64,000 nucleotides of DNA from Escherichia coli (GTDB lineage Bacteria; Pseudomonadota; Gammaproteobacteria; Enterobacterales; Enterobacteriaceae), in the NCBI RefSeq assembly GCF_003334385.1, contig NZ_QOWN01000006.1. One strand, given 5' to 3'. The position numbers and the translations under genes were made by a program. The stretch's first letter is position 1, and the number at the start of each line of letters is the position of its first letter. Shown in pieces: positions 30,827 to 30,904 of this stretch. The notes under the pieces are model-generated. The model made no database searches. It worked only from the letters and a program-made list of their open reading frames with translations, and was not told the DNA's origin.

Positions 30827-30851
30827 AATGCGACCAATAATCGTAATGAAT

Positions 30852-30878
30852 ATGAGAAGTGTGATATTATAACATTTC
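30852..30878. promoter_or_regulatory. Zur operator in the divergent znuA / znuCB promoter region
   Basis: atGAGAAGTGTGATATTATAACATTTCat, an extended AT-rich palindrome between the divergent start codons. Confidence 0.7.
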
Positions 30879-30904
30879 ATGACTACTGCAAGACTAAAAT
30901 TAAC

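Follow-up and report, generated by a model that had tools for sequence, protein, structure and literature searches.

The closest described counterpart of the regulatory region considered here is the znuABC operator (PznuABC) of Escherichia coli K-12 (Patzer & Hantke 2000; Outten & O'Halloran 2001; Gilston et al. 2014, PMC4219657), from which it shows no difference in sequence. Published experiments on this exact sequence cover Zur binding with its stoichiometry and zinc dependence, znuC repression and the position of the znuC start, the methods behind the Zur data being footprinting, a crystal structure, EMSA, RT-PCR and Reg-Seq in zinc medium. In the crystal structure on the znu operator, four Zur monomers encircle the central part of the DNA, paired into two dimers that sit on opposite faces; this encirclement accounts for the ~30-bp footprint of a 19-kDa protein (PMC4219657). 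Binding is highly cooperative (apparent Kd 8.2e-18 M2), the central bases weigh most in it, and the inner TATA separates Zur boxes from Fur boxes (PMC4219657). In the Reg-Seq study, Zur sites at znuA and at znuCB served as 'gold standard' sites, and both were recovered (PMC7567609).

Three other E. coli operators of Zur, those of zinT, ykgM (L31p) and pliG, have the core TGTnATAnTATnACA in common with the znu site; each of them serves one promoter, whereas the znu operator serves two. Ranked by apparent Kd among the four operators, znu is the second-weakest and pliG the weakest (PMC4219657). Repression of znuC in vivo is modest at 6.6-fold (PMC4219657), while the zinT and L31p operators bind Zur >100-fold more tightly and reach 500- to 1000-fold repression as against the ~7-fold at znu.

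A similar arrangement was described in Yersinia pestis, where znuA and znuCB are likewise divergent with a single Zur box on both -10 elements, in a spacer of 73 bp; primer extension and footprinting placed the Zur site over the -10 of both promoters (PMC2706843). Y. pestis showed protection of one further region, in which there is no Zur box, whereas no second box-like sequence was found in the E. coli spacer. Overlapping -10 hexamers on opposite strands, such as those assigned here at znu, also define the bidirectional promoters with a shared -10 (Warman et al.; PMC12825309). Start sites in those promoters are 10–23 bp apart, and the predicted znu starts, that of znuA being our own placement, are ~20 bp apart. 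The examples treated in PMC12825309 do not include the znu pair, which differs from them in that one repressor covers the shared element and turns both directions off.

The DNA analysed here (the window) is a 64-kb stretch of E. coli DNA, identical over 601 nt at the znu locus to K-12 MG1655, with MG1655 coordinates equal to window coordinates plus 1,911,757. The gene names given by the original prediction, znuA and znuCB, were borne out by this 100% identity to MG1655 and by the PGAP annotation of a RefSeq E. coli genome with an identical stretch, which calls znuA and znuC flanked by lpxM, mepM, ruvB and ruvA. The spacer between the two genes has a GC content of 29%, compared to 51% in the whole window. 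The znuA–znuC region was found in all 5426 complete E. coli genomes searched; the 5428 junction matches obtained include one on a plasmid record and one genome with two copies. Coordinates of all features are collected in Table 1.

Table 1. Positions of genes, regulatory elements and metal-binding motifs at the znu locus (window coordinates)
Feature	Position	Strand	Remarks
znuA, periplasmic zinc-binding protein, 310 aa	29894..30826	-	ORF and PGAP annotation of identical stretch; ATG at 30826
ZnuA acidic His-rich loop, residues 119-139	30410..30472	-	8 Asp, 2 Glu, 6 His
znuA–znuC intergenic region	30827..30904	.	78 bp, complete gap between divergent genes
Zur box GAAGTGTGATATTATAACATTTC, 11-1-11 dyad GAAGTGTGATA-T-TATAACATTTC	30856..30878	.	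23 bp, centre 30867
Published Zur-protected sequence AAGTGTGATATTATAACATTTCATGACTA	30857..30885	.	Exact match to Zur box quoted in PMC2490734
znuCB extended -10 TGaTATTAT	30862..30870	+	From sequence; 7 nt 5' of mapped TSS
znuCB TSS (MG1655 1,942,634)	30877	+	Mapped experimentally (Outten & O'Halloran 2001), according to Reg-Seq (PMC7567609)
Putative znuA -10 TAATAT	30864..30869	-	Reg-Seq RNAP-like at T, A, last T; 16-bp spacer to -35
Putative znuA -35 TTGCAG	30886..30891	-	Reg-Seq positive on TTG, negative on final G; TTGCA 94-100% conserved in 78 Enterobacterales
znuC, ABC ATPase, 251 aa	30905..31660	+	ORF and PGAP annotation of identical stretch; ATG at 30905
ZnuC Cys193-x3-His197-x-Cys199-Cys200, zinc-sensing domain ligands	31481..31504	+	Kept in 77-80/80 species (may be slightly inflated, see text)
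ZnuC HHHNHRHD, residues 230-237 of 251	31592..31615	+	His230, 232, 234 (probably 236) zinc ligands
znuB, permease	31657..32442	+	4-nt overlap with znuC stop codon

We assign a probability of about 0.97 to the palindrome in the spacer being the Zur operator of the divergent znuA/znuCB promoter region of E. coli, an operator that is already known and structurally characterised. The original prediction had named it as such from the letters alone, and the exact presence of the published footprint sequence, the Zur co-crystal (PMC4219657) and the standing of the site in Reg-Seq (PMC7567609) all agree. Its claim of a single palindrome was likewise right, with the refinement that two Zur dimers occupy it. 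The 27-mer originally singled out, GAGAAGTGTGATATTATAACATTTCAT, spans 30854–30880, of which only the Zur box proper is symmetric, its arms being complementary at 9 of 11 positions. From the centre of the dyad it is 41 nt to the start of znuA and 38 nt to that of znuC, and the description of the palindrome as centred between the start codons was thus accurate to ~1.5 bp (spacer midpoint 30865.5).

Compared with the gamma-proteobacterial consensus GAAATGTTATAWTATAACATTTC, the box has two mismatches in 23 positions, and it was the sole site within three mismatches of this consensus in the 64 kb, with none in 100 shuffles. The central bases read ATATTATAA, so that the central TATA is present. A position-weight-matrix scan for Zur, suggested as a check alongside the original prediction, gave a concordant outcome. 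The palindromic matrix was built independently from the zinT, ykgM and pliG operators of MG1655 only, with znu left out against circularity, and on it the znu site scored 25.6 bits (self-scores of the three training operators, 28–31), the top of the window, followed by a site of 11.7 bits; the best of 200 shuffled windows reached 20.8 bits. The next-best box-like sequences, at 34370–34392 (6 mismatches) and 46491–46513 (the 11.7-bit site), were set aside as being at chance level. The skeleton RxxxYRxxRYxxYRxxxY (Gilston et al.) proved useless as a stand-alone scan, with 248 matches in the window. A repeat search at the spacer reported only the 9-nt central palindrome, because its extension tolerates neither of the two arm mismatches.

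Bare dyad symmetry is not beyond chance here, and it is the specific match to the Zur motif that carries significance: 12 dyads of the 11-1-11 type with at least 9 of 11 complementary positions were counted in the window, against 7.3 +/- 3.2 in shuffles. Three dyads elsewhere in the window, at 20327–20349, 1593–1615 and 52657–52679, are purer palindromes than the Zur box, with 10 of 11 positions complementary (e.g. ATGCCCGATCCTCGATCGGGCAT). A chance AT-rich dyad without function in an AT-rich spacer is a reading that could draw on the 1.7% of shuffles of the 78-bp spacer that yield a dyad with at least 9/11, and on the ~1 in 100 random 64-kb sequences of the spacer's AT-rich composition that attain the matrix score of the znu site. 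This reading was weighed against conservation across species.

A single ZnuC scan of a collection of species-representative genomes yielded 80 Enterobacterales loci (ZnuC identity 59–98%), every one of which has a divergent ZnuA homologue upstream. A box with up to seven mismatches was present in the spacer in 78 of these, the exceptions being Candidatus Steffania adelgidicola, a reduced endosymbiont, and an uncultured metagenome-assembled Enterobacterales genome. Since the loci were retrieved by ZnuC peptides, the conservation of the box is not a selection artefact. Positions -7 to +8 of the box are 78–100% identical across the 78 loci, save for position -4 (G or T), and the mean information per column was 1.77 bits in the core vs 0.51 bits in the flanks. 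The distance from the dyad centre to the znuC start was 35–39 nt in 71 of the 78 loci. A near-invariant core kept at a fixed position in 78 species while its flanks diverged, taken together with the published binding data, already refutes a chance origin, which we regard as vanishingly improbable.

Within E. coli, the spacer was at least 99% identical to that of K-12 in only 836 of 5292 genomes. Among the variants inspected, changes affected position 30839 and, in a few cases, the outer left arm (30853, 30856, 30859); the core was never changed. Position 30839, which lies in the presumed znuA 5' leader and outside the operator, is A in K-12 and mostly C in the other E. coli strains inspected; E. 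albertii, Citrobacter and Enterobacter have C.

Control of the operator mainly by another regulator, such as Fur (iron), OxyR or SoxS, with Zur in a secondary role, was also considered. The boxes of Zur and Fur, both AT-rich dyads, are related to each other, an OxyR site is on record in RegulonDB for the znu region, and SoxS increases znuACB expression. The Fur consensus had no match with up to three mismatches in the whole window, though, and the central TATA is Zur-specific. According to PMC7567609, the OxyR site falls beyond the segment that was mutagenised for znuA. No shift of the znuACB promoter by SoxS was seen in gel assays, the activation by SoxS being indirect. We therefore hold it to be very improbable that a regulator other than Zur is the principal one, and found no evidence that contradicts Zur control.

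The mapped znuCB start directly places one promoter on the operator. The -10 hexamer TATTAT (30865–30870) lies inside the Zur box, preceded by the TG of the extended -10 at 30862–30863; the mapped start base is a T, and its position may be 1–2 nt off. No -35 element is recognisable in the sequence for znuCB, and the left flank shows no conservation among the 78 Enterobacterales loci. In zinc medium, the Reg-Seq repressor footprint of znuCB covers -18 to 0 relative to the TSS, i.e. window positions 30859–30877, which is the Zur box (PMC7567609). The signs within the box were mixed in these data and depend on a possible 1-nt register ambiguity; mixed signs are to be expected because the repressor and polymerase sites coincide. 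A generic scan for sigma-70 promoters and terminators over 30650–31100 reported neither, because neither promoter attains 9 of 12 hexamer matches; the scan is too strict for an extended -10 promoter and for a -35 with 3/6 matches, and its blank result does not count as evidence of absence.

The G at position 30863 (box position -4), where the consensus has T, is one of the two mismatches of the K-12 box; it breaks the palindrome and is at the same time the G of the znuC extended -10 TG. Of the 78 species, 63% have G at this position and the others mostly T, which points to a compromise between the symmetry of the operator and the strength of the promoter.

For znuA, the database TSS at MG1655 1,942,661 (window 30904) is a computational prediction only, as listed in PMC7567609. 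In the Reg-Seq znuA reporter, mutation lowers expression at T, T and G of TTGCAG (30891–30886), and further RNAP-like positions fall within TAATAT (30869–30864), at its first and last T and at the A (PMC7567609). The final G of TTGCAG is repressor-like, which is to be expected because its change from G to A would improve a -35. The same TTGCAG positions had no effect in the znuCB reporter, and the znuA footprint carries no polymerase-like signal at the -10 expected for a start at 30904. Across the 78 Enterobacterales loci, the block TGCAA, which reads TTGCA on the minus strand and occupies +20 to +24 relative to the dyad centre, is 86–100% conserved, and its surroundings are not. From the Reg-Seq signal and the TTGCA conservation together we therefore infer a znuA promoter with TTGCAG as -35, TAATAT as -10 and a predicted start near 30857; the database start at 30904 is probably wrong. 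The znuA start has no entry in the text of the Cappable-seq and Warman supplements when looked up in both MG1655 coordinate versions.

A perfect extended -10, TGtTATAAT (30874–30866, minus strand), was also evaluated as the znuA -10. It was ranked second to TAATAT because it lies 14 bp from the conserved -35 and because its T-12 and A-11 are repressor-like in Reg-Seq.

With these assignments, the znuC -10 and the putative znuA -10 lie on opposite strands, have 5 bp in common and mirror each other across the dyad of the operator. The claim that the palindrome is placed to repress both promoters therefore held up, as the box covers the znuC -10 and the one deduced for znuA. We lean towards viewing the two promoters as one two-fold symmetric unit on the Zur dyad axis, with -10 elements that overlap by 5 bp, starts at ~30877 (plus strand) and ~30857 (minus strand), and a symmetry that is broken deliberately, the znuC side having the extended -10 TG and the znuA side the -35 TTGCAG. 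If this is true, the database znuA start would be off by ~47 nt, and RNA polymerase molecules would compete for the shared element whenever Zur is off. With the starts as placed, the whole palindrome is contained in neither transcript. The mildly new element in this analysis is that published Reg-Seq data and conservation, as we interpret them, put the znuA promoter inside and just to the right of the operator, a revised placement that could tidy a database entry.

The overlap of the two -10 elements also raises the question of whether the dyad could be a mere by-product of two opposite-strand hexamers (TAnnnT both ways) that needs no repressor. The central 7–11 bp can be read as two -10 hexamers, bidirectional promoters with a shared -10 are common in E. 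coli (PMC12825309), and dyads of such quality are, as counted above, not rare in the window. The conserved block nevertheless exceeds the -10 elements, extending to G-6, T-5, C+6, A+7 and T+8 of the TGT...ACAT arms, and the site matches Zur operators at unrelated genes, where the arrangement is not bidirectional. The published Zur–DNA complex already refutes a repressor-free reading, and a footprint exists too (PMC4219657, PMC2490734); we consider such a by-product about as improbable as control by another regulator.

Under Zur control, zinc-loaded Zur, a Fur-family repressor encoded elsewhere in the genome, binds the 23-bp pseudo-palindrome at sufficient cytosolic zinc, cooperatively and as two dimers on opposite faces. 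As the operator core would also be the core of both promoters, with the -10 elements of znuCB and znuA overlapping there, Zur on this shared region would exclude RNA polymerase in both directions at once. A drop in zinc would cause Zur to leave, and both transcripts would then be made, supplying periplasmic ZnuA and the ZnuB2C2 importer. The znu operator is a textbook case of metal-responsive control, in which one operator turns off the two halves of a zinc importer in concert and with femtomolar sensitivity; many pathogens depend on this importer for virulence to a relevant degree. It also serves as a positive control, being an experimentally validated site that was recognised from sequence alone.

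Both encoded proteins have close structural references, with full-length matches of ZnuA to the crystallised E. coli protein (PDB 2OGW, E = 6.5e-209) and of ZnuC to PDB 9OKQ (E = 1.1e-165). The acidic His-rich loop of ZnuA reported in the original prediction is present, and the description of it as unusual did not hold: loops of this kind, 12–50 residues long, are typical of zinc-specific cluster A-I binding proteins. In this cluster they are disordered in crystals, have micromolar affinity for zinc and are thought to aid loading of the high-affinity site. The ZnuA loop is a hallmark of its class, an auxiliary zinc site of low affinity and not a sensor.

The His-rich tail of ZnuC was correctly recognised, and makes up only half of a zinc-sensing domain, Cys193, His197, Cys199 and Cys200 having been missed. 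According to a 2025 cryo-EM preprint on E. coli ZnuBC, residues 193–251 constitute a zinc-sensing domain with two zinc sites (PDB 9OKO-9OKR), of which M1 is formed by C193, C200, H230 and H232, and M2 by H197, C199, H234 and 'His246'. Zinc binding locks ZnuBC closed, and mutation of M1 renders cells zinc-sensitive (same preprint). The notion that metal-sensing determinants are visible in both the DNA and the proteins thus applies to ZnuC, and to the ZnuA loop only loosely.

All of these ligands (Cys193, His197, Cys199, Cys200, His230, His232, His234) are present in the ZnuC encoded here, save residue 246, which is Arg. Ligand conservation was 77–80 of 80 species, values that may be slightly inflated since two ligand motifs were among the six retrieval seeds. 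Residue 246 (codon 31640–31642) is variable among the 80 orthologues, and His236 (codon 31610–31612) is kept in 78 of 80. The 'His246' of the preprint is therefore probably a misprint for His236.

One complete genome departs from the common structure of the locus. In E. coli NIPH17_0036 (NZ_AP024561.1), ~153 bp corresponding to window positions ~30773–30925 are missing, a gap that takes away znuA codons 1–18, the initial ~7 codons of znuC and, between them, all of the spacer including the Zur box and the two promoters. PGAP called overlapping alternative starts at this locus. The deletion may be genuine, leaving a znu locus that naturally lacks promoters, or else stem from an error in the assembly.

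An Rfam search returned no family at threshold in or near the znuA–znuC spacer. Small RNAs identified elsewhere in the window were MicL (46684–46991, minus strand), RyeA/SdsR (11343–11487, both strands), C0465 (60982–61059, plus strand) and ES036 (42706–42748, plus strand).
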